In this document: positions 3,547 through 63,713 of the stretch, one piece after another
Layout of the letters: each line of letters begins with the position of its first letter
Position numbering within the stretch: position 1 is the stretch's first letter
Source: a virus
Strand: one strand, 5' to 3'
Length of the DNA stretch: 64,000 nt
Virus record (IMG/VR): IMGVR_UViG_3300032213_001531
Span: 1-64,000 of that record
Made by a program: the position numbers and the translations under genes
Notes under the pieces: model-generated
Database searches by the model: none
Seen by the model: only the letters and a program-made list of their open reading frames with translations
Told to the model about the DNA's origin: nothing

Positions 3547-3575
3547 TTGACAAACACTAATGTTTGGTATATAAT
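3547..3575 (+). promoter_or_regulatory. Consensus sigma70/SigA promoter with no clear downstream ORF
   Basis: TTGACA-17 nt-TATAAT. Confidence 0.75.
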
Positions 3576-3757
3576 GCGCTATCCAGCTATGGGGATATAA
3601 GGTTTGACAAAGGTTTGAATATGTGGTATAAGTGTTTGATATGGGGCTATGGGGTTTGGCACATTACGACGCCCCTCTTAAAAATGTTCTATACTCCACT
3701 ATCCTCCACTTCGCTCCACTTAAACCTTGTCTAATAATATAATCAGTAACATATTTC

Positions 3758-23849: not shown

Positions 23850-24016
23850 TCGTCATCATCTCTATTTCTAATTGGATAGGTAATTGCCCATGCAATCAAT
23901 GTACCTATAATTGCATAACCCACTATCGTCTTTGCCGAACCATCAAGGACAACCCAGGCAATAAACATACCTAGAAGTGTCCAAAGCTGATCTATCATAT
24001 CTTTTATTACTCTCAT
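23846..24016 (-). CDS. Two-TM membrane protein (56 aa, ...DQLWTLLGMFIAW...), not in the ORF track
   Basis: Translated by hand; TGATG and ATGA coupling. Confidence 0.7.
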   Translation of the reverse strand: MRVIKDMIDQLWTLLGMFIAWVVLDGSAKTIVGYAIIGTLIAWAITYPIRNRDDDE

Positions 24017-45974: not shown

Positions 45975-46502
45975 TTACACCGCCTCATATATTGTATCAC
46001 TTAATACTATTCCAGAACTTAAAATTTGAACTTCAACCTGCTCATCTTGTTGCAAGTTTATGACATTAATAATTATATTGCCAGTTTCAGGTTCAAGATA
46101 AACAATTTTGCAGTTAGGAACCTGCTCTATGTTTGGGGCTGTTCCAATTAGTGTATAGCCAGTTCCACAATCTGGAACCTTGTTCTCAAAAGATATTGGA
46201 AAGTTTTTAAAATAGGCTAAATCCGCATCCTGCAACGCAAGGATGTTTTGAGGATTATACTGAAAGTTAATAGCAGCTAAATTTTTAATTGCTTGATATA
46301 CAACATCTTGCCCATTGACTAAGTCGTGTCTGGCAATATTAATCATCTCTTGCCCACCTATGTCTTCAAAGGTAAGGTAGAATTGTATTTCTTGTGGTGG
46401 TAGAGAATCTTCTAGAATAATTAACTCTGGGATTGCCACCTTTACCGCCACAGAAGGCTTAGAAGGGGTATTAGACGCTAGATTAGCCGTTGCTTCAGTC
46501 AT
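45975..46502 (-). CDS. Minor tail protein
   Basis: Position; TAATG coupling. Confidence 0.6.
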   Translation of the reverse strand: MTEATANLASNTPSKPSVAVKVAIPELIILEDSLPPQEIQFYLTFEDIGGQEMINIARHDLVNGQDVVYQAIKNLAAINFQYNPQNILALQDADLAYFKNFPISFENKVPDCGTGYTLIGTAPNIEQVPNCKIVYLEPETGNIIINVINLQQDEQVEVQILSSGIVLSDTIYEAV

Positions 46503-49500
46503 TATGCCACCTCACTTAAAAACACTGTCATATCAGGACCATCTGGGCTTTTGCTGTATTGAATATTGTATACTACGTATCGCTTAGATATGTCTCCTAG
46601 TTTATTTATAGATTTTTCATTATAGTCTATATTAACAATATCTCCTAATTGTAATGTTGGGTTAGCAAAAAGCTTTATACCTACAGACTTTCTAGGCTTC
46701 ATAATTTTTGAAATAATCCACTTCATTAATGAATTTGCAGAATCTTGTGTTTGAATGTATTCTGCCTCAAGAGAAAAATCTTTTTTCCCATATGTCATCC
46801 TACTCATTTTGATATCTTCATAGTCTTTTGTTAGCTTTAAGGGTGATGAGACAACACTGTCTCCATTAAACTCAAGGCCAGAAAAGCTACTATTCTTAGA
46901 AAAATACTGATCAACAGTCAAGGTATTTTTTGTTTCTTGTGTGAATGTAACTCCCTGAATCTTTAGATAGTTTCCAGAAGTTTCATCTAAAAATAATATA
47001 GAGTCCGTTGTATTAAAGATTAAAAACTCTGCACCGTATGCCCCTGCTCTAAAACCAGAAACAGTATATCCCCTAAGTCTATTAAAGGTTGGAGATAATT
47101 TAGCAAAAAGTGCTGGGAACGCTTTATCATATTTAATATTAAAAGATGCAACCTCTCTCATAATTGTTCCAAACTCATCAAAGAATATATTATAGCGTAA
47201 AGGGTCTGAAGAACTGATGCCAGACAAATAGCTATTTTGAACTATTCCACTAATCGCATATTTTCTAAATGATTCACTTGCATTAATCTCTTTATTTGCA
47301 AATGCAGAGCTTACTGGGGTGTCTAAAGCAAAGCCAGAATTTTGGCTATAGTTTTGTGTTAGCGCATAAACATGCTCAAACATGACTCTTGAAGATCCAC
47401 GAACAAACATTGCCATATTATTATACTCTGGCAAAGGGTCATTATCAACTATTCTGGCTACAATATTTTCATTAATAAACAGATAGAAAACTTTCTTAGA
47501 TCCTAAATTTTCATACTCAACAGATAGATCATAGACAGTTGTTGGGGAGTCCCCAATAAGTCTACCTTGACCAGTAAACAAGCCGTCATCTACGGTAACA
47601 CCAAGGAGTCCTTGCCATAGTGTTTCTGGAATAGCTTCGCCAGTTACTGAATCCTTTTTAATTTTATAAAAGATAACATCATTAAGATTTGCATCTAAGT
47701 TTTTACTACGACTGTTTGTACCAAGTGCAATCAACTCAAAGTAGTATCCATTGTTTGTTGTTGGATTTAGCAATACTCCAAGCCCACCAGATCCACCAGA
47801 AATGTTGATTGGTTCATTAGGCGTTGTTCCATCAACAGTATAATTGATTGTACTTCCAACGGCAGTCTGAACAACATTAGTATCATTTTCAATTCTTCCA
47901 ACAATTCTCATTCTTGTTCCAAAGTGTTTAAATTTATTGTCTAATGGCCTATGAACATATGAAATAAAATCTAAAGGTTTTTCTGTTGTATTAAAAGATG
48001 GGCCATTCATCACTAATGCAGAAGACTGAACTGTTCCTCTTATCGGAGTAGTCTTCTTATTATTTTCTGATTCTGCAGTTTTAAATGAAGAAGCATAATT
48101 TTTTATTATTCCATTTCTTGTTGTTTTAACTGCTAAAGCATTGTTAACTCCTGCTGCGCCTATTCCTGTAGTTGGTAATTTTTGTAACTCTAAGTCTGCA
48201 TTAACCAAAGCCGTTTGTGGAGGTAGAGTTATTTTAAATTTAGTTTCGTCAACAATTTCTGTAACTTTATTAACTACAGATAAGTCTAAAAGCCCAGTAG
48301 ACAAAGCTGAAGTAAGGTTTACCCTTTGCCCCACCTTAACTAATGTTGTGCTACTTGCAGTAATAACATTTCCAACTGAGGTAACTCCAGTAAGGGTAAC
48401 AACATCCTGATTTCCAAATAAATATTCAGAACGCATTGTGCAGCCCTTAACATTTTTATTATCTGACCAGTATGGATTTAATCCTGCAGTATGTGCTGTT
48501 GCAAAAGTTCCAAACTGTCTTCTTCCATGTTTAGCCACTGGACCATTTTTTAGTTTTGTTACACCATTTACTTCTTCATAATTTGGTTCAGAATAGATTC
48601 TCAACCTGCCAGTTTTATACATTTTTCCATTAAATGGTAGTTGTGAAAAATATCTTTGATACTCTTCAGTGTTTTGAACCCAAACATTTCCAAGACTGTT
48701 TAGTGATACGCTAATGGTATAAAGGTCTTGTCCATTTGCTGTCACTGTTTCAAGTAGTCGTTCTGCTCCAGGTATGTTATATTCAACAGCATCGTACTTA
48801 ATGATTTCTCCGTTAGCGTATAGGTATCCATTATTTCTTGACAATAAGCTAATGCCCTCGCCTAAATCAATTATATTATTTACAACCTGATTGTTTACAA
48901 CATAGGGGATAGAGTTAGCAAGATCAGAGTTTAGTGGAATTGCCGATAACGCATAAGATGATTGAGTTCCTGCTGTCTCATTTTGAGCCTGAGTATTTTC
49001 GCTTGCTCCAACCTCCCACAAAAGTGCTGGCTTGTATCTCCAAGTTTTTGCATTATCTTCACCCTGACTAGTTTGATCTATAGAAGACAAAGTTCTTTGA
49101 ATATATCTAGAAGTATAATTAATTAAACCATCATTATAAACATTGCTGTCTTGTGAAGATATTTCAATAATGTTAGCAATCTTATCTTTATTAGTTTTAT
49201 TTTTTATTGCACCATCCTTAACCTGATCTGAAGACCCATAAAGAGTCATACTTGTTTCTCTTTGTGTTGCGGTTGGCATCATGTACTCTTTACTCATTAA
49301 AATAAAATTATTGTATTCATCAAAAAACATTGCGGTTTGTGTAGAGATAGCCAATTGCTGCAAGACTTCTGCAACACTGATGTCTGGTTGTACAAAGAAA
49401 TAAGGGATTATAGACTCTGATTCTCCAGAAATTCTTTTAAAGGTATAGTTTGAAACACCTATAGCATCCATTAAAATAGAAACTGCTGAAGAAAAAGATA

Positions 49501-51082
49501 TATCTTTAAGTAAAAGTTCTGGGGCTTTAATTGATTCTAAATAAAAATATAAATCTCTAAGCTCTAGACTAACTGTTTTGCTGGAGTTGTTGCTAACTAA
49601 AAAGCCATCAGAGTATAAAGTTTTTAGTGGTACGAAGTAGTCCCACCCATTAACCTCTTCAATAACTTCATAGAATTTAACCTGAATATACCTTGAGTTA
49701 TATTTACTAATAATGCTTGTAGAATTGTTTTCATTAAAAGCATCATCATAATCAAAGAATTCAACTGAGCCATTAGACGCCAAGAGTTGTCCAACTGGCA
49801 AACCACTAGACCCTAAATCTGAAGCAATCTTGTTTACCGAGTAGTTCAAAGTTTTTTCTGTAAGGTCCACAGATAGTCTAGGAGATAACTCAATTAGATC
49901 AAAGGTTGATTGATTTGTATTCATTGATTCAACTACAACTCTTAAACCTTTAACATACTCAAACTCTCTGTATCTTGTTAGGCTGTCTGTTGGATTTAAA
50001 AATGATAGTGGGCTTGTTACGTCAGTTACAAAATTTGTTAGTCTTGTAACAGTCTCTTCGTGAATTTGCCAAGCATATTCTGGAGTAAACGTATCATATC
50101 TTAAGTTAGGTTGATTCCAAATATAAAATGTTCCAATGTCTGTTTCATTTGCTGTAATTAAATAAGCATAACCATTAACAGACTTTGCAGGTAAAAGATT
50201 AGCAGAAGAATACTTTTCAGCAAATACAAAAATATCTTTATATTGATTTGGAACCTTAAGTCCATACTCAATTTCTAAATATCCATCTGATTTAATGATT
50301 GGAGATCCATCTGATCTTAAATCTTGTGGCTTAAAAGATATAGCATCTACCCAGCTATTGTTTTTTAAATACTGAATTTTCCATTTTTTTGGAGTGGTTT
50401 TATTTACATCTCCGTAGTATGGGTCAGCAAATGAGCTACCTCTGTTTGTAAATGGGCCAAGATTTATGTCTCCAACATTTGTTTGCATTTTTACAACAAT
50501 TCTGTTTGTCGGAACAGCATCCTTATAAACTATAAAAGGAACACTGTCTGAAATTTTATACTCGTTATTGTGTAAACTAGAAACGCCATAAGAGTAACCA
50601 TTTTCAGTTCTATAAGAAGTCCAGTATTTAAATGCATCTGTTTTATCTGGCATGTAATATCTTGGGCGTTGAGCCATAAATATATTTGGATTATGTATAA
50701 AAAATTTACCAGGGAAGAAAGATGATTTATTTATTCCAGATCTTGGTCTAAATGGTTTAAAGCAATCCTCTAATGAATATAAAAATTTATTTTTTTCTTT
50801 TGTTTGGACTAGGGTAAACGGAGTTTCTGTCTCGTCAACTCCTCCATCAATCAAGATATCTGCATCGGTTGCTCCAGTATAAAAATTTCCAGAATCTCCT
50901 GCATCAAATGTGTTTGGCAACGTTGAATAAGTTGTTCCAGTTTCTGCAGGTCTATATCTGTAATTACCAATAAGGCTAATGTTACTAGCAATATTCATAT
51001 TCCACTCACCAATAATCGATGATCTGCTTTTAATAACAGATGATGTTTCTAGGTGGTTTTTTAATTCATCACTCTTAAACAT
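46502..51082 (-). CDS. Large minor tail (hub/central fibre) protein
   Basis: LQQLA......FFDE and P.LQLGDIV hub-like motifs; second gene after the TMP. Confidence 0.75.
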   Translation of the reverse strand: MFKSDELKNHLETSSVIKSRSSIIGEWNMNIASNISLIGNYRYRPAETGTTYSTLPNTFDAGDSGNFYTGATDADILIDGGVDETETPFTLVQTKEKNKFLYSLEDCFKPFRPRSGINKSSFFPGKFFIHNPNIFMAQRPRYYMPDKTDAFKYWTSYRTENGYSYGVSSLHNNEYKISDSVPFIVYKDAVPTNRIVVKMQTNVGDINLGPFTNRGSSFADPYYGDVNKTTPKKWKIQYLKNNSWVDAISFKPQDLRSDGSPIIKSDGYLEIEYGLKVPNQYKDIFVFAEKYSSANLLPAKSVNGYAYLITANETDIGTFYIWNQPNLRYDTFTPEYAWQIHEETVTRLTNFVTDVTSPLSFLNPTDSLTRYREFEYVKGLRVVVESMNTNQSTFDLIELSPRLSVDLTEKTLNYSVNKIASDLGSSGLPVGQLLASNGSVEFFDYDDAFNENNSTSIISKYNSRYIQVKFYEVIEEVNGWDYFVPLKTLYSDGFLVSNNSSKTVSLELRDLYFYLESIKAPELLLKDISFSSAVSILMDAIGVSNYTFKRISGESESIIPYFFVQPDISVAEVLQQLAISTQTAMFFDEYNNFILMSKEYMMPTATQRETSMTLYGSSDQVKDGAIKNKTNKDKIANIIEISSQDSNVYNDGLINYTSRYIQRTLSSIDQTSQGEDNAKTWRYKPALLWEVGASENTQAQNETAGTQSSYALSAIPLNSDLANSIPYVVNNQVVNNIIDLGEGISLLSRNNGYLYANGEIIKYDAVEYNIPGAERLLETVTANGQDLYTISVSLNSLGNVWVQNTEEYQRYFSQLPFNGKMYKTGRLRIYSEPNYEEVNGVTKLKNGPVAKHGRRQFGTFATAHTAGLNPYWSDNKNVKGCTMRSEYLFGNQDVVTLTGVTSVGNVITASSTTLVKVGQRVNLTSALSTGLLDLSVVNKVTEIVDETKFKITLPPQTALVNADLELQKLPTTGIGAAGVNNALAVKTTRNGIIKNYASSFKTAESENNKKTTPIRGTVQSSALVMNGPSFNTTEKPLDFISYVHRPLDNKFKHFGTRMRIVGRIENDTNVVQTAVGSTINYTVDGTTPNEPINISGGSGGLGVLLNPTTNNGYYFELIALGTNSRSKNLDANLNDVIFYKIKKDSVTGEAIPETLWQGLLGVTVDDGLFTGQGRLIGDSPTTVYDLSVEYENLGSKKVFYLFINENIVARIVDNDPLPEYNNMAMFVRGSSRVMFEHVYALTQNYSQNSGFALDTPVSSAFANKEINASESFRKYAISGIVQNSYLSGISSSDPLRYNIFFDEFGTIMREVASFNIKYDKAFPALFAKLSPTFNRLRGYTVSGFRAGAYGAEFLIFNTTDSILFLDETSGNYLKIQGVTFTQETKNTLTVDQYFSKNSSFSGLEFNGDSVVSSPLKLTKDYEDIKMSRMTYGKKDFSLEAEYIQTQDSANSLMKWIISKIMKPRKSVGIKLFANPTLQLGDIVNIDYNEKSINKLGDISKRYVVYNIQYSKSPDGPDMTVFLSEVA

Positions 51083-51777
51083 TACACTTCTTCCAATGTA
51101 CAAGAAACATTCCAGAAGTCATAGTTACTTCCACCACGCTTAACGACAGTATAACTAAAATCTGAAATAAACATTTCTATTAATTCATTATATTGTCCAA
51201 GGTGTGCGTAAGCTAAATTGTCTTTACCAAAATTAGAATACTTATCATAAGCAAGGTATACCCAAAAAGAACCTTTATGGCTATCATACCAATCTACAAG
51301 ATCTACTCCCCCTGCTCCACCATCAGTGGTGTATTCTTGATTTTGTATTGTAACATTTGGAAGTTGTGAGAATGACGCATCTGTTCCTGGCTCTCTTAAA
51401 CCTTCATCAATTAAAGATGTTTTTCCAGATGAGTTAAATGATGGATTTAAACCATGAGATCTAGATGGAAGCATGTTCCAAGATGTACCAATAGTTAGTT
51501 TGTCAGCAATATGATATGAGCGCATACGACCATTAATCATTCTTTCACGCTTTTCAATTCTGTTGTTATTAAAATTAATCTCTCCTCTATTATCATCAGA
51601 TAATATTAAGAATTGATCTAGCAAAGATTGATCTGATATACCAGTAGTATCAGCTTTTACTTCATAGCCGTTGGGAACATAAAGACCATTAGTAAGGGTT
51701 CCTGAGTTATTAGCCCAAAGCATTGCTTGTGGTCTAGCATACTTTCTTCTACCATTGATATATGTTTCTGTTGCCAT
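51082..51777 (-). CDS. Distal tail (Dit-like) protein
   Basis: Directly after the TMP; RM.NG.MR and W..S..LEEV. Confidence 0.7.
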   Translation of the reverse strand: MATETYINGRRKYARPQAMLWANNSGTLTNGLYVPNGYEVKADTTGISDQSLLDQFLILSDDNRGEINFNNNRIEKRERMINGRMRSYHIADKLTIGTSWNMLPSRSHGLNPSFNSSGKTSLIDEGLREPGTDASFSQLPNVTIQNQEYTTDGGAGGVDLVDWYDSHKGSFWVYLAYDKYSNFGKDNLAYAHLGQYNELIEMFISDFSYTVVKRGGSNYDFWNVSCTLEEV

Positions 51778-54700
51778 TAAAATCTACTCCCTCGAATTTT
51801 TTGTGAATCTATCTGTTTAATTTGAGCCATAACTGATCTAGCAATTTCATCAGGATTCGCATCTGACTTAACGTTTACGCTAATACTATAATTATACACT
51901 GCGTCGCCTACTGAATCTCCATTATTGATTGCTTTCATCTTGTCCGCACCATGAGTGTTAACAGCATACTTACTCATTACAAATTCTCCTGGAGTAAGCA
52001 TTGCTGGTACTGTATCTGTTCCCATAGCATAACCGCCTGAAGCAAAGAACTGAGGAATTAATCCACCTGAAGATTTAGCAGCAAAACCAGTACTAAAGTT
52101 AAACGGAGTAGGCTGGCCATCTTTATAATTAATTCCGTCTTTGTTACCAGTAAAAGGCTCCCAGCTATCAGTTTTTCTTCTATAGATAAGCGCTCCAACT
52201 CCTGTGTCTGTATAAACATCACCATTCTTATAATCATTTCCCCATACTGTATAGCTAGTCTGATTTGGTGATCCAATTAGTGGTTCAGAAAATGTTAACA
52301 TTGTTGCTGGATCATTTGCATTAGATGTTGTACTTGATGTTGTTGAAGAAGATGAAGATGTTGTTGAAGAAGATGAAGATGTTGTTGAAGAAGATGAAGA
52401 TGTTGTTGAAGAAGATGTTGTTGAAGAAGGGGAGGCTGTTGAAGTATTTCCAGATGTTGAATTTTTAGAGGCTATGGCTTTAGCTAATAAAGCATTTGCT
52501 TTTGCTAACCTATCAGAGTTCTTGGCTAAGAGTGCTGCATTTTGTTCTATCAAAGCATTTAAATTTTCTGCAATAGAATTTGATATTGACATGCCTGATT
52601 CAATAAGCTTTAAATTATTTTCTGCTTTAGTAATTGCATCTTGAGCAGTTTGCAATTCTGCAAGCCTTCCCTTATTCATATAATCACCAAAACGATCTGA
52701 CATGTCAGCATAAACTTGTTTTGCGTTATTGACAGCTGCAACTCCTTCATCATAACCTACAGGCTTAGTGTTTGCATTATTATTTAAAGCTGCATCTGCT
52801 GCTGCAAGAGCTGCGTCTAAAGCTGCTGTTGCCTGAGCGTCTATTGCATCTGCTGCATCTTGTGCTGCTTGTGCCATTGCTACTGCTGCTGCAGCTGCTG
52901 CGATGGCAGCGTTAGCTGCATCTTCCGCAATTTTAAGTGCTGCGTTAGCTGCTGCTGTATCTGCGTCTGCTGCTGCTTGTGCTTCTGCAAGAGCTTTTTC
53001 GGCTGCAGCTTTTTCTGCTGCAGTTACTGCCTCTGCTTTAATCTTGAGTGCTGCTGCAACAAGGGCGTCTGCCTCTGCCTTAGATTTTTCTGCTGCAGCT
53101 TTGGCATCAGCAATAATTTTGTCAGCAGCGGCTTTTGCATCCGCAGTAATTTTATCTGATGCAGCTTTAGCATCTGCTTCTGATTTAGCTACATTTGCTG
53201 TGCTTCCAGAATTAGTAACAATGGTTTGTGCAGTAGTCATTATCTTGGAGTCTTTTGCAGGTGTTGCTGCATAGGCACCAATTTTTGTCATAATTGATTC
53301 CCATTGTGCATTGATTGCTGTTGATGCTGCTAATAATGCAGCAAAGGCAGTATCTAAATCTTTTTTAGATAGATCATATGCTTTTACCTTAGCTTCAATT
53401 GCAGCCCAAGCATCTTTATTTTTTCCAAGGACAGTAGTTTCTTCAACTAATTTATCAAGTCTTGCTTGAATAGTTTCATTCTCGGTGTTTAAGGCAGCAA
53501 TCATTCTTTCTCTATCTACAACACTATCTTTAGTAATTTTAGCAATTTCATTTTCATAAGTCCGAATCTGCTTTAAGTTATTTTCTCTTAGCTGTTCTAA
53601 CTCATATATAGTTTTAGTTTTAGATTTAATACTATCTTGAATTGCTATTTTTCTAGGATCTGTTTCTAAAGCGTAAATGTCTTGAGAAATTTGATACTGC
53701 TTTTCTTTAATTTGATCTTGAGTAAGGCCCTGAGTTGCTACAAGCCTATCTAGTTCATTTTTTCTGGCTAGTTCAAAAGATTTTTGTGCTGCATTAGAGT
53801 ATAAATCTGCGCTTGCTTTTCGCATATCCTGCATTGCTTTTCCTGCTGCAGAAATATCTCCGCTAGTTAAAGCATCTGCTAAGCTAATCTGTTTTTCTTG
53901 TTGTGATAAAATTGCATCATTAATCTCTTTAACTGTTGTTAGGGATTCTGCTTGCTGATCGTAACGTTTATTAATTTCTTCTGCAGCATGATTAATAAGA
54001 TCTAAATCATGAGATAAGGCACTAGATTGATCTTGCAATGCTTGAATAGGCTCATTAAACTGAACATCAATTTGATGCTGTAGATCATTAATCTCTTTCT
54101 GATAATCATCAATCTTTTGACTAATATTAAGAGAAACTGCTGCTTGAATATCATTAATCTTATACTGAAGTTGCTCTATCTGTGCTTCATATGGGCGGAG
54201 TTGGCTTTGTAATTCTTTAATCTTTGTCTCATTAGCAGAAAGTTGTGCTACATCTTTAGTGCTTCTAGAATCTACACCAGTCTTAATTAGATCTTCCTGT
54301 ACCGCAAACATTTGGTTAACCATATCAAGACCAGAAGAAGCAACTTGAGCATAGTCTCCCTTGTTAAAGTTGATTTGAATATCAATTAGTTTCTTAGCTT
54401 CGATGTCTTTCAAGAACTCAGAAATTGCTCCTGTTGAACCTTCAATAGCTGCTATGTCAATTTTGCCATCTTTAATGTTTTGGGTGAACTGTTTTAGCAT
54501 TGCAGGGTTTCCAAGTACTGCGTCAATTTGCTCTACAGAATACCCCATAGACTTCATTGCACCTACTACTTCTGGAGTTTTTGCAAATACATCAAACTCT
54601 GCATTCTTTGTAAGGGTGTCAGTTATAACCTGCATCTTTTCCATTGCACTATTGGCTTCAGCAATATCTTTAATAAACTTCTTCATTTCATCTGAACCTG

Positions 54701-57700
54701 CAGCACCAAGGGTTCCAGCAGCAATAGCTGAAGCAAGAGATTGATCTTCAATTACTTTAAGTGCATCGGTAACAGACATTCCTGCACCTCTTAAAATCTC
54801 AAATGCTTCTCTTTGTTTTTTAATGTTGTCTATACTTTGGGCTGCACCAAATTGAGCCATACCAACAACTACTGAATTAAAGGCTTCGGACAACCCTAGT
54901 AAGTCTTCAGTTATTCCAATGACGTTTCCTTTATCGTCTAGCTTGAATGGTTTTTGTTTATCCTTTTTACTTGGGTTTACATCTGAGTTTTTAAAAGCTT
55001 CAAACTCTTCTGCTGACATTCCAGATATTGCATCCATGAGTCCTGAAGATACTCCACCCTCTAGCATTATTTGCTGTAGGCCCTTAAACTTTGCAAACAT
55101 TCTGCTAAGACCGCCTTCAGCACCTTTACTATTTTCAAAAATAGCCATGATAGATTTTAATGGGGTAAGAGCATTAAAAGCTGAATCTCTAAATAGTTTT
55201 AGCTTCATTCCTAAATCCTCTAGAAAAGAATATGCTCCCTTTAATGTATCTGCAGCTTCTTGTGCAGCTAGCTTTTTTAGATCAGCAGTCTTTGGACCAT
55301 AGATAGAATCCAGTCTTTCTTTTAGTAACTTATCCAAAGTGCTTTTAGCAATACCTGGGTTTGCTTTACTTAACTGATCTATTTGTGCTTGTATGAGAGC
55401 TGCTGAGTTTGCTAATGGAAGAGGAATATCTTTCCAAAGTCCTTTTTTCTTAAACGCATTAATTAATTCTGCATTCAACTCTTGTTGGATGTTATCTGAT
55501 ATCAACAACTGATTTAAAGTAACTGATGCTTCTAGCTGTAGTGTTGGATCATAACTACTTAATAGATCCCAATTTTTTACTGCAGCATCAAGTGCTTCAT
55601 TTGGGCTTTTCCCTTTTAACTTTAATTCAGCTTGATACGCAATTAGCGCTGGTTTAGTAAGCTTTCCTCCTGGGAAATGTTTTCTAAGGGCATCAATTTC
55701 TTTTCCAAGTTTTTTGAGTACGGGAATGTCATCTGGATCTGATTCTATATTTAAATCTATTCTAAACTCTGGAGGGAATTGAATAAAGTCTTCTAACATT
55801 GAGTAGAATTCTCTAGCTTGTTGAGGGCCTTCTTTGCCATTAAAAGTACCAGCAACATTGACTACAGTATTAATGTTTTCTTGATCTGATAAATTTTGAA
55901 GAATCCAGCCAAGAGAATCCATCTCTTTAGCTCCTTGGCCTCCTAACATTAATTTCCAAGTTGTTTCAACATTTTTTCCAGTTGCTATAAAGTTCTCAAT
56001 TAAAGCTTTTGCAGATCCAGCAGAAATGTCACCAGCTACGACTGATGCTTGAACCATAACTCCAATTTTTGTTACATCTTGAGTTGTTTTTGCTTTTAAT
56101 CCTTGAATAATCCTTACTTGATTCTGCATTTCAGCAATATATTCTGCTTGCGCTGCAGTAAATTCACCACTATTACTATCGTAGGAATCTCTTCTTGCTT
56201 GAATTTCTGCTACTCTTTTTTCTGACTCTGCTAGTTGTTTCTTTAATTCTTTTCTTTCTTCTGAAGAAATTCCAGCTTCTTTTGGAATCAGTTTTGAATC
56301 TGGATTTAGCAATGCACTAAGTTCTGTTGCTGCAAGCTTTTCTGGACCTACGGCATCTTTATATTTATCATCAAAGGCTGTCTTGTATGCTTCTGCATAT
56401 TTAACCTTTGCATCTTTGCCACTAATGTTGTCCAAGAATCCAGTAGCTCGATCTACAACGTCTACCCCTTGATTTCTTAACTCTTGTTGATCTTGAAGGT
56501 TTTGATCATTAAGATCTTTAATCTTCTTTTCAATTTCAAGTCTTTTTTCTGCAGTCTTAACGGCCTCTTTTTCTTTAGTAAGTTTTTCAATTTGAGCATC
56601 AGTTTGCATTTGTAGTAGATCCATAGATTGTTGAACTTGTGCTAGTGACTGAATTGAATTACCTGCTACTGCTCCAGCAACTGCTCCTACAGCTTTCTTC
56701 TCTCTACCTTGTTGATACTTTCTAAGAGCTAGATCTGCAGCAAGTGTTGTTGCTAATATAATTGCTCCAGGAAGTACTCCTGCGCCAGTTGCAGAAGCAC
56801 CTGTTCCTAATGCTGCTGCTCCTCTTATAACTCCTGCGCCAAATCTTGCCTTTCCTAAAGTTCCTGCTATTTGTGACTCTTTTGCAAAAGTTGCTGCAGC
56901 AGGTAGCGATCTAGCCCCAGCTATAACCCCTGTTTTATCAAGTTGACTAGCAATACGGGCGCCAAGAAGAGCGCCACCGACTGTGCTTCCTGCAAGCTCA
57001 AACCCCTCACGTTTATTGATTCCAGTCCTTAGTCCAACAGCCCCTGCTCCAGGCACATTCTGCATGAGGTTAGCAAACCATCCGCCCATTTCTTTTTCAA
57101 CAACATCACTAAAAATATTCTGCATTTGAGTAGTAAGTTGTTTTTGATTTTTTAATATCTTTAATTGAACCCCAATAGGGTTATCTTTTAGATTTTTTCC
57201 ATCGGGGCCGATGATTTCTCTTAAAATTCCTCTAGCTTCAATCTCTAAAGATTGATCTCCCATATCTCTTGCAAGATTTACAATGATTGATTCTGCCTGA
57301 TCTGCAGACAATACTCCTTGGCTTACTGCTGAAGCAAGTTTTGTTCCTAGTTGTTTAGCTGCACCTCTACCGTTTGATTTTGCGTAAGTGTTAAACTCAG
57401 CAATAAATTGTTTTCCAAATTCGCTACCTGAAAAATCTTTACCAAATGTTTGATCAATTGGAGTTATCTCAAGTCTATTTGCTTCTCTCTTCTTGTCCAT
57501 AATTTGTGTTGCAGACATTGTTCCAAGGATAGATCCAAAACCTTCCAAAGACTCAATGGTATTTCCAATAGATTGTCCTTGTTTAACTCCATCAGCAATA
57601 GATTTTCTAATTGCCATGCTCTGCATTTTAAATGAAACGCCTAATGCTACTACTGTGGCAATCAATTTCTTTAGCGGTGAATTAAGAAGTGGCAATATCA

Positions 57701-60700
57701 TTGGAAGCATAGATGCTCCCATAATTGCTGTCATGTGATTAGAAGCAAATTTTCCTGCTGTTGAATCAGGTGATCCTTGTGCAATTCCTTGAGCAAGCAT
57801 AGGAATCATCATGGCTGCCATTCCTACACCCATCATTGTTTGAGATGATTTCATTCTTTGATCTTGTCTTGCATTAATTCTTTGTTCTTTATTTAATGCA
57901 TTACCATCTTGATCGTGGGTTGCAACTTTTCCATACCCTGTCCAATAACCACCATGTGGCTTAGGACCGCTAGGTCCACCAGGACCAGCAGGGCCACCCA
58001 TAGATGACAGGCGAGCATCAATCTTTCTAACTCTATCCATTGCTTTTGCGCTTGCTGATTGAACCCTAGCATTATTTGCAACTGCCTTAGTTCCAGTTAC
58101 TACCGCCGTTCCAAACTTGCTAACTTGAGCTGTAGCTTTTCCAAGTACATCTGCTCCCTTTGAAGGTGGTGGTGTATTTGCTACTGGAGTTGCTCCCCAA
58201 CCATCACCCTTATCAACCATGGTGTATCCAGGAAGAGGTCTTGGAACTCCACCCTTACCGCCTCTACCACTACCATGTTCAGGAATTGTTCCATTAATCA
58301 TTCCTGAAACTAATGAAGAATATTTGGCTGCAGCCTTGGCTGGAATGACTGCTTCTCCAGGAGATAGCATTGCTGGTTGAATATCTCCCGCACCCTTTGG
58401 CCCTGGAACTGAAAAAATTCCTTTTGCTAATGCAAGAGTATCCGCTGGCATATAGTCTGAGTCTTTAAATTTCTGATTCTTGTAATATCCATCATGAATT
58501 CTTTTCCTTAATAAATGTTCAGTAATTATATCTGTAGTTGTCCAAGTGTCTGCTTTATTTTTTGCACCCCAACCTTTATATTGATGTCTTTTACTTTCTA
58601 ATTTACTAAGTGCTATCAATGCTTCTTTTTCAGTTGTTACGTGAATTGCGCCCATCCTTTTTGAAAGTGCATTCATTCCAGAGTTTATAACTGTCTGATC
58701 TCTCACAACATTGTCTGCTGGCCAAAACTCTAAATCTCTATTTTTACCAGTAGCTTTTATATGGCTTGCTGCGATTCCACCTTCGCCAGATCTGACTCTC
58801 TCTATTGCAGTTTGAAAGTCTGGTGCTTTTAATACAGCAAGTGCATCTGCTTCTGAAATTTTTCCAGTATTAACAAGATTCTTCTTTACAGAAGCAAGCT
58901 CTTCTGCATAATAATTTAATAGCTTTTGTGCTGGTTTATTTTTACTAGGGTCAGCAAGAACTTTTTGCCATCTACTATTTACCTCTGGTGGAGTGGCTCT
59001 AGTTCTTGATCCTGACCAAGGATTTACATTTGCAAACAAACCTTTACCAGAAGCTGTTCCTATGTCTAATGGTTTACCGCTTTCTTTATACTTTAAAATT
59101 CTTGCTTCTAAAGCTTTTACTTTTTGTGCATAAATTGTTTTATCTGGATATGCTGCTTCAAACTCTTTCCATCTTCCTTCAAACTTAGCAGCCTCTGATG
59201 CTTTTACGGTCATAGATTGACCACCTATTTGAATTTGTGACATTCCAGACCCAAGGCTACTAATCTTAAATGAGGTGCCAGGAGGTAATGGGGTGAGTGG
59301 TAATCTTGTTCTAGATTCTAGACTAGCAACTGTTGCTGCTTCTTTTGCCCCTGAAACTTTTACTGCTGAAGCTGCGCCGTACATGCCCAGTCTTCCAGCC
59401 ATGTATCCTGGAACTACTCCACCCTTAGCGAAACCATTTCCTTGTGCCCATTTAGAAAAACCTTCCATAAAGTCTTTATCAGATAAGGATGAGGCGTGTC
59501 CCTTTTGTCTTGCTCTTAATGTAATTTCATCTTCTATTTTTTTTATTGCTGCAGGAGTTAATGCTTTCTTTGGATTAGCAATTACTGATGAATGAATCCC
59601 GTGAAGTTCTCTCCAGTTCGCACCCCTAGAATCCTCTAAGCGTCTAACCATGTCTTGATAAATACCCTGCTCTTCTTTATTTAACTTAAATCCTGCTATT
59701 GTTGCTTTAAGTCTTGGAAGAGTTTCATCGATCTCTCGTATCATTCTTGTATGGTATTCTTCTGCAGTCATTCCCTTTGGAATATTAGATGTTGCTTCAG
59801 CAAAGAATCTTTTTGCATTTGATCCCTTTACGCCAAGTAAATTTATACGAACCTGATCTTCAACGGATGGCATGCCTTTTGAATATGTTCTAAAACCAGA
59901 TGCTGTATCAAAGACTCCAGCATTTCCAGCATCAACCATATTTCTACCAGACACATTTGCCATTTGGAGATCTTTGTCTCCTCTTACTCCAGAAGCTAAA
60001 AGTTGTGCAAAGTATTCATCTTCACTAAACTTGCCCGTTGGTTTTGCAAACTCAGGGTTGTAAGGGGCTTCAGATACAATAATTTTTCTTTTCTTTTGTG
60101 GATCCGTTGGATCAATCATTGTACGAATTGTGTGCTCTGGTGCTTTTAGTGGAAAGGCTTTGTTTGTAATAGTAGCCATTCTTTCCTCTGCTAAAGCAGC
60201 AGTCTCATCAACATATGGCTTAACAAATACCTTAGTTCCATCTGGCTTTTGATACAATCCGCCAATTCCTTTAACAGGAAATGAGTGCCCTGTGGTTGCT
60301 TCAAGTTGAACGCCAAAATCTGTTGGATCCATGTTAGCAAATCGACTTGCTTCAGTTCCTTTTCCAATTGACTCCATTGATAGTCTTGCTTTACGTTGTA
60401 TATTAACTGCTTTAATGCTTTTTGGCATACCCAAAAATAGTGGCATTCTTCCAAGTATATGACCTGGCAAAGTTCCGTCAATCATCTGTCCAATAAATGG
60501 TGCATACTTCTTAGCCATGTCAGCAGGAATAACGGCTTCTCCAGGGGTTAGAAGGGCTGGGGTAGTATCTTTATTACCTGTTCCAGGAACACTTGTCACA
60601 CCCTTGGCAAAACGTCTTGGAGGGGTAACTCTGCCCCTGCTTGGCATAAACATTCCAGGGTTTGTACTAGCAAAACTAGACATTGCAACTTTTGCTTCTC

Positions 60701-62618
60701 TGTAAGCATTAGTTAAGGCAACAAGGCTTGCTGACTCAAGGACATATGCGGAAGACAAAGATTTATGGGCTGTTGCAAGACTATTTGATACAGCAATATT
60801 TTCTAGCTCTTCATTGCTGAGGTACTGTGTTCCAAGGGCTGCATCTTTTGATCCATAAGCTAAACCTTGAAAACCTTTACGAATAAGATTAAACATCTTC
60901 ATTAAGTTAGCTAAACCGTTAGCAACAAGACCAACGGTCATAAGTAGAATTGGACCAATACCAGCAACTGCTGCTACAATAATTGCTACTGCTTTTTTAA
61001 TTCCTTCAGGAGCATTGTTAAATTTATCAAACAGCTTAACAAAGAAATTAATAACTGGAGTCAATACCTTTGCAAACAATTCACCAATTGGAGCAATAGA
61101 TGCTTTAAGTTTTTCAATTGCTGCTTGCATTTTATACATAGGAGATGATTCCTGTGTTTTTAATTCTCTCTCAGATAACAGCGCCAACTCTTCTGCAGAT
61201 GCAGATGCCAATTTTAAAACTCTGCTTGCTTGGTTTCCTTCTTTTGTTACGTTATTTAAAAGTGCTGAGATTCTTGAAAACTGATACTTGCCAAAAACTT
61301 TTTCAATTGTTTGTGCTCTTTGTAGGTCTGTTAGTGGTTGTAATGCTTGAGCAAAAGAAACAACAGTATTTTTTAAGTTACCCTGATTGCTTTCAATAAT
61401 TCCCTTAAGGTTAATGCCTAGCTTTGAAGTTGCTTCAGTTGCTGCTTTTGATGGATTAATTAAAGATGCAAGACCAGACTTAAGTGCGTTAGCTCCTTGC
61501 TCTGCACTAATACCACCTTCTTTCATTGCTGTAAGGAAGAATGCTAAATCTTTTACATCTCCGCCAAGCTGTTTAATAACTGGAGCAACTCTTGGAATGG
61601 CATTAGATAAATCTTCAAGGCTTAAAACAGTTTGGTTTTCAACAGAGTTAAGAAAGTCCATTGTTTTAGATAGTTCGCCACTACCAATAGCAAAAGCATT
61701 TTGTAATGCAATTGTTGTTTCTAAAGCTTTGTCTTGTGCAACTCCACCAAGGACTGCTAATTTGTTTGCTTGTCTTACTACCGTATCAAGTTGCTGCCCT
61801 GAGTTACCTGCTGCTGCTGCATCTGCAGCCATCTTGATTGTTTCAGAAACTTTAAGTCCATACTTTGTATACTCTTTAGCAATATCTTTCATGTTTTTAA
61901 GGGCTTTGTCAGTATCATCTTGTGTTGTAAAGATGTCTCCATAAACCTTTTTAAATCTAATTGCTTGAGTTTCAATTTCTTTAAATGCTTTTATTGCTGA
62001 TCCTGCGAACATAGCTAAAGGAATTGTAAAACCAACCATAAGCTGGCGACCAGCCCACTGTGTATTCTTACCAAAGTTTAGAAGTTTTGTAGCACCATCG
62101 TCAAGCAGCTTATTCATTATCTGTTGACGTTGAATAGTCATTGACATTCTTGTTAATGCGTCGTTATAATTAAGTGCTTTTGGTGTAATTCGCATTGAGC
62201 GGATTGCACCCTGTGCGTCTTTACCTAGTTGGACATACTGGCTTTGAAGAGCCTTAACTCTTTTTTCAGCAAGGTTGCTAATTGTTTGAAATTCTCTAGC
62301 GTAATTCTTTCCAAATGTTTTAGTGGAAGCCATGCCATATCGATAGTATTCACGAAGTGATAGCTTGCCAGCTTCCAGACGTTTTGAAAACTGATCTGTA
62401 GAAGTTGCCATCTTGCCCATTGAGGCATTAAACATGCCTGTGGCATTAATGTTATGTAAAAGTGATTTTGAAAAATCGGCTTGAGCTAGTGATGCAGCTT
62501 TTGTGCCGACGATCATGGAACGGTTAAGTGCAGATATCTGCTTGTCTAGCCCACGTAGTGCGGACATAGCTTGTGTTGTATCAATATTAATTAAAATATT
62601 GCTGTTTACATCTGTCAT
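51777..62618 (-). CDS. Tape measure protein with inserted enzymatic domains
   Basis: TP901-like TMP core (AAAAG, ENQT, G.....GANAL), coiled coils; follows the tail chaperones. Confidence 0.92.
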   Translation of the reverse strand: MTDVNSNILINIDTTQAMSALRGLDKQISALNRSMIVGTKAASLAQADFSKSLLHNINATGMFNASMGKMATSTDQFSKRLEAGKLSLREYYRYGMASTKTFGKNYAREFQTISNLAEKRVKALQSQYVQLGKDAQGAIRSMRITPKALNYNDALTRMSMTIQRQQIMNKLLDDGATKLLNFGKNTQWAGRQLMVGFTIPLAMFAGSAIKAFKEIETQAIRFKKVYGDIFTTQDDTDKALKNMKDIAKEYTKYGLKVSETIKMAADAAAAGNSGQQLDTVVRQANKLAVLGGVAQDKALETTIALQNAFAIGSGELSKTMDFLNSVENQTVLSLEDLSNAIPRVAPVIKQLGGDVKDLAFFLTAMKEGGISAEQGANALKSGLASLINPSKAATEATSKLGINLKGIIESNQGNLKNTVVSFAQALQPLTDLQRAQTIEKVFGKYQFSRISALLNNVTKEGNQASRVLKLASASAEELALLSERELKTQESSPMYKMQAAIEKLKASIAPIGELFAKVLTPVINFFVKLFDKFNNAPEGIKKAVAIIVAAVAGIGPILLMTVGLVANGLANLMKMFNLIRKGFQGLAYGSKDAALGTQYLSNEELENIAVSNSLATAHKSLSSAYVLESASLVALTNAYREAKVAMSSFASTNPGMFMPSRGRVTPPRRFAKGVTSVPGTGNKDTTPALLTPGEAVIPADMAKKYAPFIGQMIDGTLPGHILGRMPLFLGMPKSIKAVNIQRKARLSMESIGKGTEASRFANMDPTDFGVQLEATTGHSFPVKGIGGLYQKPDGTKVFVKPYVDETAALAEERMATITNKAFPLKAPEHTIRTMIDPTDPQKKRKIIVSEAPYNPEFAKPTGKFSEDEYFAQLLASGVRGDKDLQMANVSGRNMVDAGNAGVFDTASGFRTYSKGMPSVEDQVRINLLGVKGSNAKRFFAEATSNIPKGMTAEEYHTRMIREIDETLPRLKATIAGFKLNKEEQGIYQDMVRRLEDSRGANWRELHGIHSSVIANPKKALTPAAIKKIEDEITLRARQKGHASSLSDKDFMEGFSKWAQGNGFAKGGVVPGYMAGRLGMYGAASAVKVSGAKEAATVASLESRTRLPLTPLPPGTSFKISSLGSGMSQIQIGGQSMTVKASEAAKFEGRWKEFEAAYPDKTIYAQKVKALEARILKYKESGKPLDIGTASGKGLFANVNPWSGSRTRATPPEVNSRWQKVLADPSKNKPAQKLLNYYAEELASVKKNLVNTGKISEADALAVLKAPDFQTAIERVRSGEGGIAASHIKATGKNRDLEFWPADNVVRDQTVINSGMNALSKRMGAIHVTTEKEALIALSKLESKRHQYKGWGAKNKADTWTTTDIITEHLLRKRIHDGYYKNQKFKDSDYMPADTLALAKGIFSVPGPKGAGDIQPAMLSPGEAVIPAKAAAKYSSLVSGMINGTIPEHGSGRGGKGGVPRPLPGYTMVDKGDGWGATPVANTPPPSKGADVLGKATAQVSKFGTAVVTGTKAVANNARVQSASAKAMDRVRKIDARLSSMGGPAGPGGPSGPKPHGGYWTGYGKVATHDQDGNALNKEQRINARQDQRMKSSQTMMGVGMAAMMIPMLAQGIAQGSPDSTAGKFASNHMTAIMGASMLPMILPLLNSPLKKLIATVVALGVSFKMQSMAIRKSIADGVKQGQSIGNTIESLEGFGSILGTMSATQIMDKKREANRLEITPIDQTFGKDFSGSEFGKQFIAEFNTYAKSNGRGAAKQLGTKLASAVSQGVLSADQAESIIVNLARDMGDQSLEIEARGILREIIGPDGKNLKDNPIGVQLKILKNQKQLTTQMQNIFSDVVEKEMGGWFANLMQNVPGAGAVGLRTGINKREGFELAGSTVGGALLGARIASQLDKTGVIAGARSLPAAATFAKESQIAGTLGKARFGAGVIRGAAALGTGASATGAGVLPGAIILATTLAADLALRKYQQGREKKAVGAVAGAVAGNSIQSLAQVQQSMDLLQMQTDAQIEKLTKEKEAVKTAEKRLEIEKKIKDLNDQNLQDQQELRNQGVDVVDRATGFLDNISGKDAKVKYAEAYKTAFDDKYKDAVGPEKLAATELSALLNPDSKLIPKEAGISSEERKELKKQLAESEKRVAEIQARRDSYDSNSGEFTAAQAEYIAEMQNQVRIIQGLKAKTTQDVTKIGVMVQASVVAGDISAGSAKALIENFIATGKNVETTWKLMLGGQGAKEMDSLGWILQNLSDQENINTVVNVAGTFNGKEGPQQAREFYSMLEDFIQFPPEFRIDLNIESDPDDIPVLKKLGKEIDALRKHFPGGKLTKPALIAYQAELKLKGKSPNEALDAAVKNWDLLSSYDPTLQLEASVTLNQLLISDNIQQELNAELINAFKKKGLWKDIPLPLANSAALIQAQIDQLSKANPGIAKSTLDKLLKERLDSIYGPKTADLKKLAAQEAADTLKGAYSFLEDLGMKLKLFRDSAFNALTPLKSIMAIFENSKGAEGGLSRMFAKFKGLQQIMLEGGVSSGLMDAISGMSAEEFEAFKNSDVNPSKKDKQKPFKLDDKGNVIGITEDLLGLSEAFNSVVVGMAQFGAAQSIDNIKKQREAFEILRGAGMSVTDALKVIEDQSLASAIAAGTLGAAGSDEMKKFIKDIAEANSAMEKMQVITDTLTKNAEFDVFAKTPEVVGAMKSMGYSVEQIDAVLGNPAMLKQFTQNIKDGKIDIAAIEGSTGAISEFLKDIEAKKLIDIQINFNKGDYAQVASSGLDMVNQMFAVQEDLIKTGVDSRSTKDVAQLSANETKIKELQSQLRPYEAQIEQLQYKINDIQAAVSLNISQKIDDYQKEINDLQHQIDVQFNEPIQALQDQSSALSHDLDLINHAAEEINKRYDQQAESLTTVKEINDAILSQQEKQISLADALTSGDISAAGKAMQDMRKASADLYSNAAQKSFELARKNELDRLVATQGLTQDQIKEKQYQISQDIYALETDPRKIAIQDSIKSKTKTIYELEQLRENNLKQIRTYENEIAKITKDSVVDRERMIAALNTENETIQARLDKLVEETTVLGKNKDAWAAIEAKVKAYDLSKKDLDTAFAALLAASTAINAQWESIMTKIGAYAATPAKDSKIMTTAQTIVTNSGSTANVAKSEADAKAASDKITADAKAAADKIIADAKAAAEKSKAEADALVAAALKIKAEAVTAAEKAAAEKALAEAQAAADADTAAANAALKIAEDAANAAIAAAAAAVAMAQAAQDAADAIDAQATAALDAALAAADAALNNNANTKPVGYDEGVAAVNNAKQVYADMSDRFGDYMNKGRLAELQTAQDAITKAENNLKLIESGMSISNSIAENLNALIEQNAALLAKNSDRLAKANALLAKAIASKNSTSGNTSTASPSSTTSSSTTSSSSSTTSSSSSTTSSSSSTTSSTTSNANDPATMLTFSEPLIGSPNQTSYTVWGNDYKNGDVYTDTGVGALIYRRKTDSWEPFTGNKDGINYKDGQPTPFNFSTGFAAKSSGGLIPQFFASGGYAMGTDTVPAMLTPGEFVMSKYAVNTHGADKMKAINNGDSVGDAVYNYSISVNVKSDANPDEIARSVMAQIKQIDSQKIRGSRF
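52336..52428 (-). repeat. 21-nt and 15-nt tandem repeats encoding a Ser/Thr linker in the TMP
   Basis: GATGTTGTTGAAGAAGATGAA x3 and GATGTTGTTGAAGAA x2 (+ strand). Confidence 0.9.
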
Positions 62619-62648: not shown

Positions 62649-62975
62649 TTATTCTTGTGAAGCAAGTGCAAGTAATGCTGAATCATTTAGATTGATACCT
62701 GATGCTGCTTCAATGATCTTGTATACTGTTGGCAGATCAACTAAATCTTCCAAATCAGCAACAGAGTAGTCTGCGTCTGCTTTATATTGTTTCATTGCAA
62801 TGTGGACACATTCAATTAGGATGTCCATTGATTTTTCGTTATCTGTTGCTACTGCTGTTAGTCCTTCAAAAGATTTCATAAACGGTCTAAGTAAAGAAAT
62901 CTTAAGTGGCTGTGCGTCAATTTTTGTTCCGTCGATAAAGACGATCTCATTCTTTTCAATTGGCTTAGTTGCCAT
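62649..62975 (-). CDS. Tail assembly chaperone, short (G-like) form
   Basis: Between major tail and TMP genes; AGGAGG RBS; own TGGTATAAT. Confidence 0.75.
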   Translation of the reverse strand: MATKPIEKNEIVFIDGTKIDAQPLKISLLRPFMKSFEGLTAVATDNEKSMDILIECVHIAMKQYKADADYSVADLEDLVDLPTVYKIIEAASGINLNDSALLALASQE

Positions 62976-63026
62976 GTATAACCTCCTGTGGTTGTAAATC
63001 AATTATACCATAGGCAGGCTTATTTT

Positions 63027-63713
63027 TTAGTCTATTTTTTCGTAAGACAATCCCATACCAATACCAAAACCAGCCTTTTGTGCATTTACTCCTTGCAATG
63101 CTAAAACGTCTTTTGAGTTAGCTGCTGTGCCACCGCTGTAAACTCTAGCTTTTAGCTCTTCCCAGGCATTTCCAGTACTCTTATTACTTGCCTTATCTAG
63201 GTCAACACCTTGCATTGCTGCTAAAAATTTCTGTTCATCGTATCTTGATTCTCTTTTACTTTCAAGAGTTGCTATTAGTTCTGGCATTGATAAAGACTCT
63301 TCTAATTGATTGTAGTCTTTCCAGATGCCCAGCAAAAATAACTCAGACTCTAGCTTTGCTAAATCTAATGTTTCCCAAGAAGATCCACTTTCTACTGCTT
63401 GCTCTTTAACGCTTTGCTCTGAATCTTTATCTACTTTAATACCTGCTGCAATATCTATTAGTTTATATATTGTAGGAAGGTCAAAGTTATCTTCTAGATC
63501 CTCTACCGTCTTTATTTCTGGCATATATTGTTGCATGGCAATTCTGGCACACTCTACTAGATTTTCAATAGTGTCTTGATCCCCTTGAGATTTTCTAACA
63601 ATTTCAAAAGCAACCATAAATTGTCTTAAATATTTTATTTTTAATGGAGTGATATAAAGTGGCGTTCCATCAACTAAATAAAGGACTTCACTATTGTATA
63701 TTCTCGTAGCCAT
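63027..63713 (-). CDS. Tail assembly chaperone, long (GT-like) form
   Basis: N-half homologous to 62649..62975; C-half L.....W....LE..LS..EL resembles a T domain. Confidence 0.75.
   Translation of the reverse strand: MATRIYNSEVLYLVDGTPLYITPLKIKYLRQFMVAFEIVRKSQGDQDTIENLVECARIAMQQYMPEIKTVEDLEDNFDLPTIYKLIDIAAGIKVDKDSEQSVKEQAVESGSSWETLDLAKLESELFLLGIWKDYNQLEESLSMPELIATLESKRESRYDEQKFLAAMQGVDLDKASNKSTGNAWEELKARVYSGGTAANSKDVLALQGVNAQKAGFGIGMGLSYEKID

Follow-up and report, generated by a model that had tools for sequence, protein, structure and literature searches.

A predicted kinase-like domain and exchangeable partner cassettes, bounded by a widespread motif, inside a giant phage tape measure protein

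Overview

The window analyzed here is a 64,000-nucleotide stretch of viral DNA, positions 1 to 64,000 of IMG/VR virus record IMGVR_UViG_3300032213_001531. It encodes, on the minus strand, a tape measure protein (TMP) of 3613 amino acids (aa) that carries two inserted cassettes: domain A, a predicted atypical protein kinase-like domain whose catalytic residues are essentially invariant across a large family of giant TMPs, and domain B, a fast-evolving domain that is replaced by unrelated domains in other members of the family. The array lies after the first hydrophobic hairpin of the protein, with the conserved atypical kinase and the exchangeable, enzyme-like second domain each bounded by a module of about 50 aa that we call the PAxLxPGE motif. 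The tail ruler probably delivers enzymes into the host. An earlier note, made from the letters of the window alone, had proposed that the TMP carries a cassette that is not TMP-like, and this central claim has held up.

By homology, the 3613-aa protein is a tail TMP of the TP901 type. Eleven PHROG TMP families match its N-terminal ~650-790 aa (best expectation value, E=2.5e-91), and a Pfam search with the whole protein returns PF10145 and nothing else except V-SNARE, which is below threshold. The position of the gene fits a tail module: the downstream open reading frame (ORF), of 1533 aa (46502-51103), matches the minor tail protein family phrog_10359, and the gene assigned to the distal tail protein is at 51082-51777. 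Coordinates of the gene and its parts are collected in Table 1.

Domain A: a kinase-like fold with a conserved active site

An AlphaFold (AF2) model of domain A, built on an alignment of 47 sequences from related viral contigs, has a predicted local distance difference test score (pLDDT) of 85.6 and a predicted template modelling score (pTM) of 0.78. In a wide VIA-align run, in which this model was compared exhaustively with 48,161 PDB representatives, all 50 top matches have the kinase fold. The best is CotH (Z 11.8 over 215 aa, root-mean-square deviation 3.8); MavQ and PI4KIIa score 9.5, CtkA 9.1, and Fam20C and HipA 8.9, and the top 50 also include PI4KIIIb, ATM, Vps34, actin-fragmin kinase, Rio, and Bud32. 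A second VIA-align run, on Foldseek candidates, again gave 50 kinase folds out of 50 (CtkA 10.1, LepB 9.1, HipT 8.7, HipA 8.2). The model thus gives domain A a bilobal protein kinase-like fold with a complete predicted active site.

The predicted secondary-structure elements follow the canonical kinase order, and the catalytic residues were assigned by their position on these elements together with conservation. A Gly-rich β1-β2 is followed by β3 (VFVK800P), αC with E811, β4-β5, an αE-like helix, the catalytic loop R-G-D-K-D883-L-x-x-x-N888, and then D896-x-G. Conservation was assessed over 227 distinct copies of the domain, that is, this one and 226 others that are 28-88% identical to it. K800, E811, N888, and D896 (the DFG-like, Mg-binding Asp) are present in every copy, and the catalytic Asp, D883, in 226. 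Invariance of this kind across diverged copies argues for selection on the active site. The kinase assignment is based on the VIA-align matches and this active-site pattern; the E-values of Foldseek against the PDB are weak. Given that the sequence of domain A finds no match in Pfam, NCBIfam, or the PDB, the domain is best regarded as a separate family within the protein kinase-like superfamily, which it would share with the structural neighborhood of HipA, CtkA, PI3/4-kinases, and CotH.

Where the kinase family occurs

Domain A occurs almost exclusively in giant TMPs. A word-indexed protein search found it in more than 1000 proteins of 2-6 thousand aa, most of them named as TP901-family TMPs; among proteins of 186-594 aa, it was found only in six fragments from short contigs. 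A full scan of 1.84 billion representatives with a HMMER profile returned 170 matches (167 of them below 1e-10), nearly all in proteins of 2000-4500 aa, with the domain starting mostly at about residue 700-1370. That scan contained no tail of matches to cellular relatives. Domains A and B together have no match by tblastn in 50,697 cultured phage records (INPHARED). Across 185,579 species genomes, domain A gave a single match, on CAZCDW010000001.1, an 85-kb contig of a metagenome-assembled genome labelled Bifidobacterium; this is probably a phage contig that was binned with the genome rather than a prophage.

This near-exclusive occurrence in giant TMPs indicates that the kinase is specific to the TMPs of a clade of uncultured phages. 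The family, which spans over 1000 giant TMPs from metagenomes and forms 170 clusters at 50% identity, is large; Pfam and NCBIfam miss it, and cultured phages lack it. In these searches, domain A was found neither free-standing nor beside a HipB/HipS-type partner, and so does not qualify as part of a HipA-type toxin-antitoxin pair. Searches of the literature for a kinase embedded in a TMP returned nothing relevant.

Motif copies within the protein

The PAxLxPGE motif, a G-x-D-x-x-P-A-x-L-x-P-G-E module, is present in the TMP as three copies (M1, M2, and M3) and one collapsed remnant (Mp). The conserved tail of the motif is PG[HYF]xxGR. Searched against the whole 105-kb genome, the motif profile finds exactly three copies, all of them in the TMP. 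The M1/M2 pair, which the earlier note had pointed out, is real: the two copies are 56% identical across 55 aa in a within-protein comparison (E=5e-16). The note had also described a third, shorter copy near the C-terminus. A third copy is indeed there and includes GTDTVPAMLTPGEFV at aa 3533-3547 (51978-52022; BLAST against M1, E=3e-4); it is a full copy rather than a shortened one. The partial motif that was said to split the inter-motif region into two domains proved to be Mp, in which the first residues of the motif, FAKGG, are fused to the motif tail, VPGYMAGR, and the PAxLxPGE core is absent.

At the DNA level, M1 and M2 have a mean column identity of only ~63%, with no long identical run. 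This makes the duplication an old one, maintained by selection on the protein. On the same grounds, a recent duplication of M1/M2 or intragenomic homologous recombination was considered and rejected.

Domain B and the partner cassettes

Domain B belongs to a family of 38 distinct members, in which E1240, S1285, H1286, N1312, H1326, R1373, and Y1379 are invariant. These invariant polar residues suggest an enzyme. One candidate is a His-Me finger (HNH-like) nuclease of the ββα-metal type with an H...N...H pattern, given the invariance of S1285, H1286, N1312, and H1326; helices are predicted at that place in the model (pLDDT 50.5), and there is no Pfam or PDB match. The AF2 model of domain B, made from a multiple sequence alignment of 12 sequences, reaches only that pLDDT of 50.5 and is mostly helical at low confidence. 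Searches of Pfam, PDB sequences, and NCBIfam gave no match for domain B, and the ESM Atlas no usable one. Thus, of the earlier description of the whole inter-motif region as globular, the part that stands is domain A, with its confident kinase-like model.

The place of the B family in the array varies. Its copies in relatives P0005-P0007 are ~31% identical to the one here, and the P0005 copy shares ~34% identity with the cassette that comes first in P0013-P0054; the family lies after domain A here and before domain A in many relatives, P0013-P0054 among them.

Among 228 kinase-bearing TMPs with lengths of 2000 aa or more, 28 architectures were counted (M-x-M-A-M, M-M-x-A, M-A-M, and M-A-x-M, for instance). 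Of these proteins, 209 have one or more internal motifs, and some arrays contain up to four. The 160 cassettes other than the kinase group by BLAST into ~30 clusters, and profile-profile comparison (hhalign) shows the four largest to be mutually unrelated. Between relatives, the inter-motif segments vary and the motifs are kept, as the earlier note had proposed to check by comparing TMP homologs. Its idea of a polymorphic payload is borne out for the partner cassettes and fails for the kinase, which is the conserved member of the array. Of the payload types it had guessed, the kinase is supported by fold and active site; neither an ADP-ribosyltransferase nor a nuclease was recognized among the partner cassettes. 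Pfam searches with the partner cassettes of 14 diverse relatives yielded nothing but one OmpA domain, and the C-terminal parts of relatives contain LysM or OmpA-like peptidoglycan-binding domains. Together, the partner cassettes make up ~30 domain families that lack annotation and bear the marks of exchange driven by conflict.

Exchange of cassettes at the motifs

The clearest view of this exchange comes from close relatives. Identity between the TMP and relative P0006 is 94% over aa 1-1075, drops to 24% over aa 1076-1396, and returns to 83% over aa 1397-3140. The break falls right after ...FAKGG[V/I]VPGYMAGR of Mp, and identity resumes at KG[I/L]FSVPGPKGAGD, the start of M2, with M2 itself 96% identical. 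By this alignment, a cassette has been replaced between otherwise near-identical TMPs. In the comparison with relative L008, DNA identity likewise falls, from 80-97% to ~50-65%, at the Mp boundary. These sharp breaks indicate that the motifs mark the boundaries of module exchange, at least as conserved junctions, and they agree with the suggestion of the earlier note that the motifs are exchange points.

The same data bear on whether the cassettes have any function. They might be tolerated passengers or pseudo-enzymes that mainly add length or bulk to the ruler, with the motifs as purely structural repeats that play no part in exchange or processing. TMPs do tolerate insertions and evolve through internal duplication, domain B could not be modelled confidently, and the partner cassettes lack a recognizable enzyme family. 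However, catalytic residues that are invariant in 226-227 of 227 copies, together with the invariant polar residues of the B family, speak for selection on active sites; the breakpoints coincide exactly with the motifs; and the protein sequence of the motif is conserved despite the divergence of its DNA. Passenger status is therefore very improbable.

The motif in other tape measure proteins

The motif is not a device particular to this system but a widespread TMP element: a 46-aa copy from mycobacteriophage Douge, used as query, matches 944 places in at least 848 records of cultured phages. Among the matches listed, all belong to TMP or tail genes, some of which bear other annotations. Cultured-phage TMPs usually have one copy, near the C-terminus, and M3 is homologous to these.

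A motif profile built from 23 copies was also searched against entries with solved structures. It matches Douge gp16 twice, at aa 967-1012 and 1415-1461 (whole-protein E=1.4e-17), and these two copies bracket a segment with an NlpC/P60 match at aa 1295-1331. The cryo-EM model of Douge gp16 is limited to aa 1658-1699. The profile also matches JBD30 gp46 at aa 1022-1052 (E=0.006). This match lies within aa 1022-1066, which the JBD30 authors predicted to form a hook; by analogy with T5, they speculated that, once the TMP has been cleaved at residue 1066, this hook anchors it in the baseplate. The motif is thus homologous in sequence to the predicted hook. In T5, pb2 is cleaved after R1127, a C-terminal muralytic fragment is released, and the last 42-43 residues of the remaining pb2* (modelled from T1085) occupy a crevice in the open hub. 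The profile has no match in T5 pb2, even with filters off, and the resolved pb2* segment has no detectable similarity to the motif. Just past the R1127 site, aa 1128-1150 of pb2 read AEGG...PGVSYQMGEHGTEVVTP, which by eye loosely resembles the motif start and PGE core; this may be chance.

The M3 region matches the TMPs of Clavibacter phage CN1A, ~70 aa from the C-terminus, and of Rhodococcus phage Trina, where a Peptidase_M23 domain lies downstream, among others. In relative P0109, an OmpA-like domain immediately follows a motif, and in P0004 a LysM domain lies just before the C-terminal motif. As judged by these matches, a motif next to an embedded globular domain is a recurring TMP pattern. 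To our knowledge, the PAxLxPGE motif has not previously been described as a domain delimiter; if general, it would be a simple sequence handle for cargo in any TMP.

Two further observations concern the motif. In P0109 (aa 2763-2856) and P0114, the OmpA-like domain directly follows a far-downstream motif copy, the protein continues for another ~1000 aa beyond the domain, and no C-terminal motif was detected. The M3 region also matches the T4-like cyanophages S-SCSM1, Bellamy, S-SM2, and P-TIM68, mostly near 7.5-7.9 kb of the genome, in genes annotated as lysozyme, endolysin, transmembrane protein, or hypothetical. Its occurrence thus extends beyond the TMPs of siphophages.

Proposed function

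On balance, we lean toward a TMP that is a ruler and channel former and that also carries inserted enzyme cassettes, which refold in the host cytoplasm to phosphorylate a host target. The TMP would be assembled into the tail with its cassettes extended or non-native. On infection, it would leave the tail before the DNA does and insert its hydrophobic segments into the host membrane(s). The cassette region, lying between hydrophobic segments, would exit last, beside the DNA end, and so reach the cytoplasmic side; exposure of the array to the cytoplasm is proposed because a kinase needs adenosine triphosphate (ATP) and the array sits between hydrophobic segments. There, the cassettes would refold, and the kinase would use host ATP on its host target, with takeover or counter-defense prior to phage gene expression as the proposed purpose. 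The motif modules would be autonomous domain boundaries, at which cassettes can be inserted, permuted, and swapped by recombination with the ruler undisturbed, and they may also serve in processing or anchoring. Indirect precedents are the cleavage of T5 pb2, which leaves one part tethered and sets the enzymatic part free, and the hook predicted for JBD30 beside a proposed cleavage site. An active TMP kinase, if confirmed, would extend tail delivery to cytoplasmic, ATP-dependent effectors that act before transcription.

Several points weigh against this proposal. With regard to the kinase, Foldseek against the PDB gives matches of the protein kinase A (PKA) type that are weak (E ~3e-3). No family matches domain A in Pfam at E<=10 or in NCBIfam at E<=1, the hidden Markov models of the Pkinase, PI3_PI4_kinase, HipA_C, and CotH families give no significant match, and PDB sequences include no kinase match. 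In addition, the modelled fold by itself would accommodate a protein, lipid, or other substrate. With regard to delivery, three folded 38-kDa kinase domains cannot fit abreast in a tube lumen of ~4 nm, and this steric limit requires the assumption that the cassettes are stored unfolded or staggered. The cassettes lie in the N-terminal third of the TMP, far from the end that exits first, and no peptidase that could process the motifs was found. Finally, the LysM and OmpA domains of relatives imply that at least part of the TMP acts in the periplasm, where there is no ATP.

The steric problem would disappear if the kinase acted in the producer cell. In that case, the TMP would be a late polyprotein whose kinase, acting in cis or once cleaved off at the motifs, phosphorylates tail or assembly proteins or host factors late in infection, and the cassettes would be trimmed or inert in the tail. 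ATP is plentiful there, the lambda and T5 TMPs undergo proteolysis as the tail is assembled, and the best structural match of domain A, CotH, is an assembly kinase for spore-coat proteins (Z 11.8). Yet if a free late protein could have done this job, there is little reason for the domain to be restricted to TMPs, and polymorphic partners with sharp exchange boundaries resemble conflict-driven diversification and not assembly. Moreover, the obvious cis substrate, a Ser/Thr-rich tract at aa 3392-3470, occurs in only 2 of the 228 relatives and was rejected as such for that reason. We regard action in the producer cell as unlikely.

Alternatively, the cassettes might assist genome entry at the envelope. 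Domain A would then phosphorylate lipids or envelope glycans at the inner membrane (compare PI4K, MavQ, LepB, and WaaP), lipids would be remodelled around the TMP channel, and the partner cassettes would bind or modify envelope components. The lipid kinases MavQ, PI4KIIa, LepB, PI4KIIIb, and Vps34 rank level with protein kinases in the structural comparisons, hydrophobic segments flank the cassette array, and relatives contain LysM or OmpA domains. Furthermore, the TMP-embedded enzymes known before (T5 pb2, the NlpC/P60 match of Douge, and the M23 peptidase of Trina) all act on the envelope. Nevertheless, the protein kinases HipA, HipT, and CtkA score equally well, no lipid-binding element was identified in the protein, and the need for ATP means that the active site must still face the cytoplasm. 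An envelope role is thus distinctly unlikely.

Delivery of a cytoplasmic kinase can be carried further, to the tentative and rather doubtful idea that the giant TMPs of this uncultured clade are effector polyproteins. The PAxLxPGE module would then be a self-contained element for boundary, processing, and anchoring, through which the kinase and the ~30 exchanged families are released ahead of the DNA. If this were true, these TMPs would parallel, in phages, the polymorphic toxin systems and would be a new source of enzymes for takeover or anti-defense, and the same module would organize embedded enzymes in TMPs generally, as in Douge.

Comparison with known systems

The principle of a TMP that carries enzymes is already known; the class of enzyme and the organized, polymorphic array of cassettes are new. 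Among the closest known systems are the TMP-embedded cell-wall hydrolases (T5 pb2 with its C-terminal muralytic domain, Douge gp16 with NlpC/P60, and Trina with M23), which likewise are enzymes within a TMP and are expelled with it. In Douge gp16, a pair of copies of this motif brackets the insert, as here. These hydrolases, however, act on periplasmic peptidoglycan without ATP, whereas the TMP described here has a kinase and an array of polymorphic partners. The TMP of mycobacteriophage TM4 reportedly contains a hydrolase motif as well (Piuri and Hatfull 2006).

In structure, HipA/HipT, CtkA of H. pylori, LepB/MavQ of Legionella, and CotH belong to the same fold neighborhood as domain A (Z 8-12 over 184-216 residues) and have the equivalent set of Lys, Glu, D-x4-N, and D-x-G. 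Their sequence identity to domain A is 6-15%, and domain A has no HipB-type partner. Weak neighbors of domain A in BFVD are phage proteins annotated as ADP-ribosyltransferase (1220 and 1340 aa), a PI3/4-kinase domain protein (614 aa), and an HK97-type portal protein (1201 aa).

Polymorphic toxin systems resemble the TMP array in having a conserved carrier, exchangeable enzymatic cassettes, and sharp recombination boundaries. They differ in that the cassettes here are internal rather than C-terminal and that one of them, the kinase, is conserved. Neither immunity genes nor silent cassettes were seen here, and the genome has only the three motif copies.

Polyvalent proteins are multi-effector proteins predicted to be delivered with the DNA, and they include a distinct kinase family that lacks the C-lobe (Iyer et al. 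2017, PMC5512222). The authors proposed that these proteins show cassette-like variability and are processed into separate activities, the latter by a pervasive Zn-peptidase (MPTase); TMPs are not mentioned in that paper (PMC5512222). Here, the carrier is a TMP, the delimiter is PAxLxPGE, and no peptidase was found with Pfam, so the MPTase of polyvalent proteins has no counterpart. Another phage kinase, T7 gp0.7, targets host proteins at an early stage of infection (PMC5512222). It is a functional analogue only, being made from the injected genome and not a part of the virion or of a TMP.

Other features of the protein and the genome

Table 1. Features of the tape measure protein, with positions in the window
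Feature	Residues	Positions	Strand	Basis
TMP gene (P0001)	3613 aa	51777-62618	minus	single ORF; PF10145 E=1.5e-27; 11 PHROG TMP families
PhageMin_Tail (TP901-type TMP core)	248-443	61290-61877	minus	Pfam PF10145, 97.2 bits vs cut-off 33.2
Strongly hydrophobic segment, putative membrane hairpin	539-572	60903-61004	minus	N-terminal to cassette array; Kyte-Doolittle 19-aa window maximum 2.55
Motif copy M1	670-723	60450-60611	minus	profile E=1.4e-22
Domain A, predicted atypical protein kinase-like	724-1062	59433-60449	minus	AF2 model and structural matches
Domain A, well-modelled core	733-1013	59580-60422	minus	AF2
Predicted catalytic residues	K800; E811; D883; N888; D896	60219-60221; 60186-60188; 59970-59972; 59955-59957; 59931-59933	minus	codons verified
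Collapsed motif Mp, FAKGGVVPGYMAG	1063-1075	59394-59432	minus	left boundary of exchangeable cassette
Domain B, fast-evolving cassette	1076-1396	58431-59393	minus	38-sequence B-family alignment
Motif copy M2	1397-1451	58266-58430	minus	profile E=3.8e-25; right boundary of exchangeable cassette
Gly/Pro-rich linker	1452-1600	57819-58265	minus	composition and hydropathy
Moderately hydrophobic segments	1590-1670; 1943-1965	57609-57851; 56724-56792	minus	hydropathy; Gly/Pro linker leads into these
Motif copy M3, near C-terminus	~3524-3571	51906-52049	minus	profile E=7e-18
C-terminal tail	3572-3613	51780-51905	minus	position only

By analogy with the resolved TMP C-termini of Douge, JBD30, and T5, the C-terminal tail would sit in the lumen of the baseplate hub. 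Just upstream of the C-terminal module lies the Ser/Thr-rich tract mentioned above (52209-52445), in which ~50 aa are almost purely Ser and Thr; relative P0004 has its LysM domain at the equivalent position. The helical ruler part of the protein includes an Ala-rich stretch (47% Ala) at aa ~3150-3300 (~52700-53170) with AADKI/AAEKA-like repeats.

The source record is 104,993 bp long and is estimated to be 97% complete. Its products include a DnaB-like helicase, a DNA polymerase, a UvsX-like recombinase, a large terminase, and tail proteins, and a search of the whole genome found no sheath families. The phage is an uncultured one of ~105 kb, apparently with a non-contractile tail. Upstream of the TMP gene, in the region 62649-63713, is a 228-aa ORF whose halves match phrog_10504 and phrog_10474, both PHROGs without an assigned function. 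Elsewhere in the window, positions 24001-26000 have a GC content of 0.444, compared with ~0.36 elsewhere, and an AT skew of -0.30; the 903-aa ORF at this place (24016-26727) has a weak PHROG match to a family without an assigned function.

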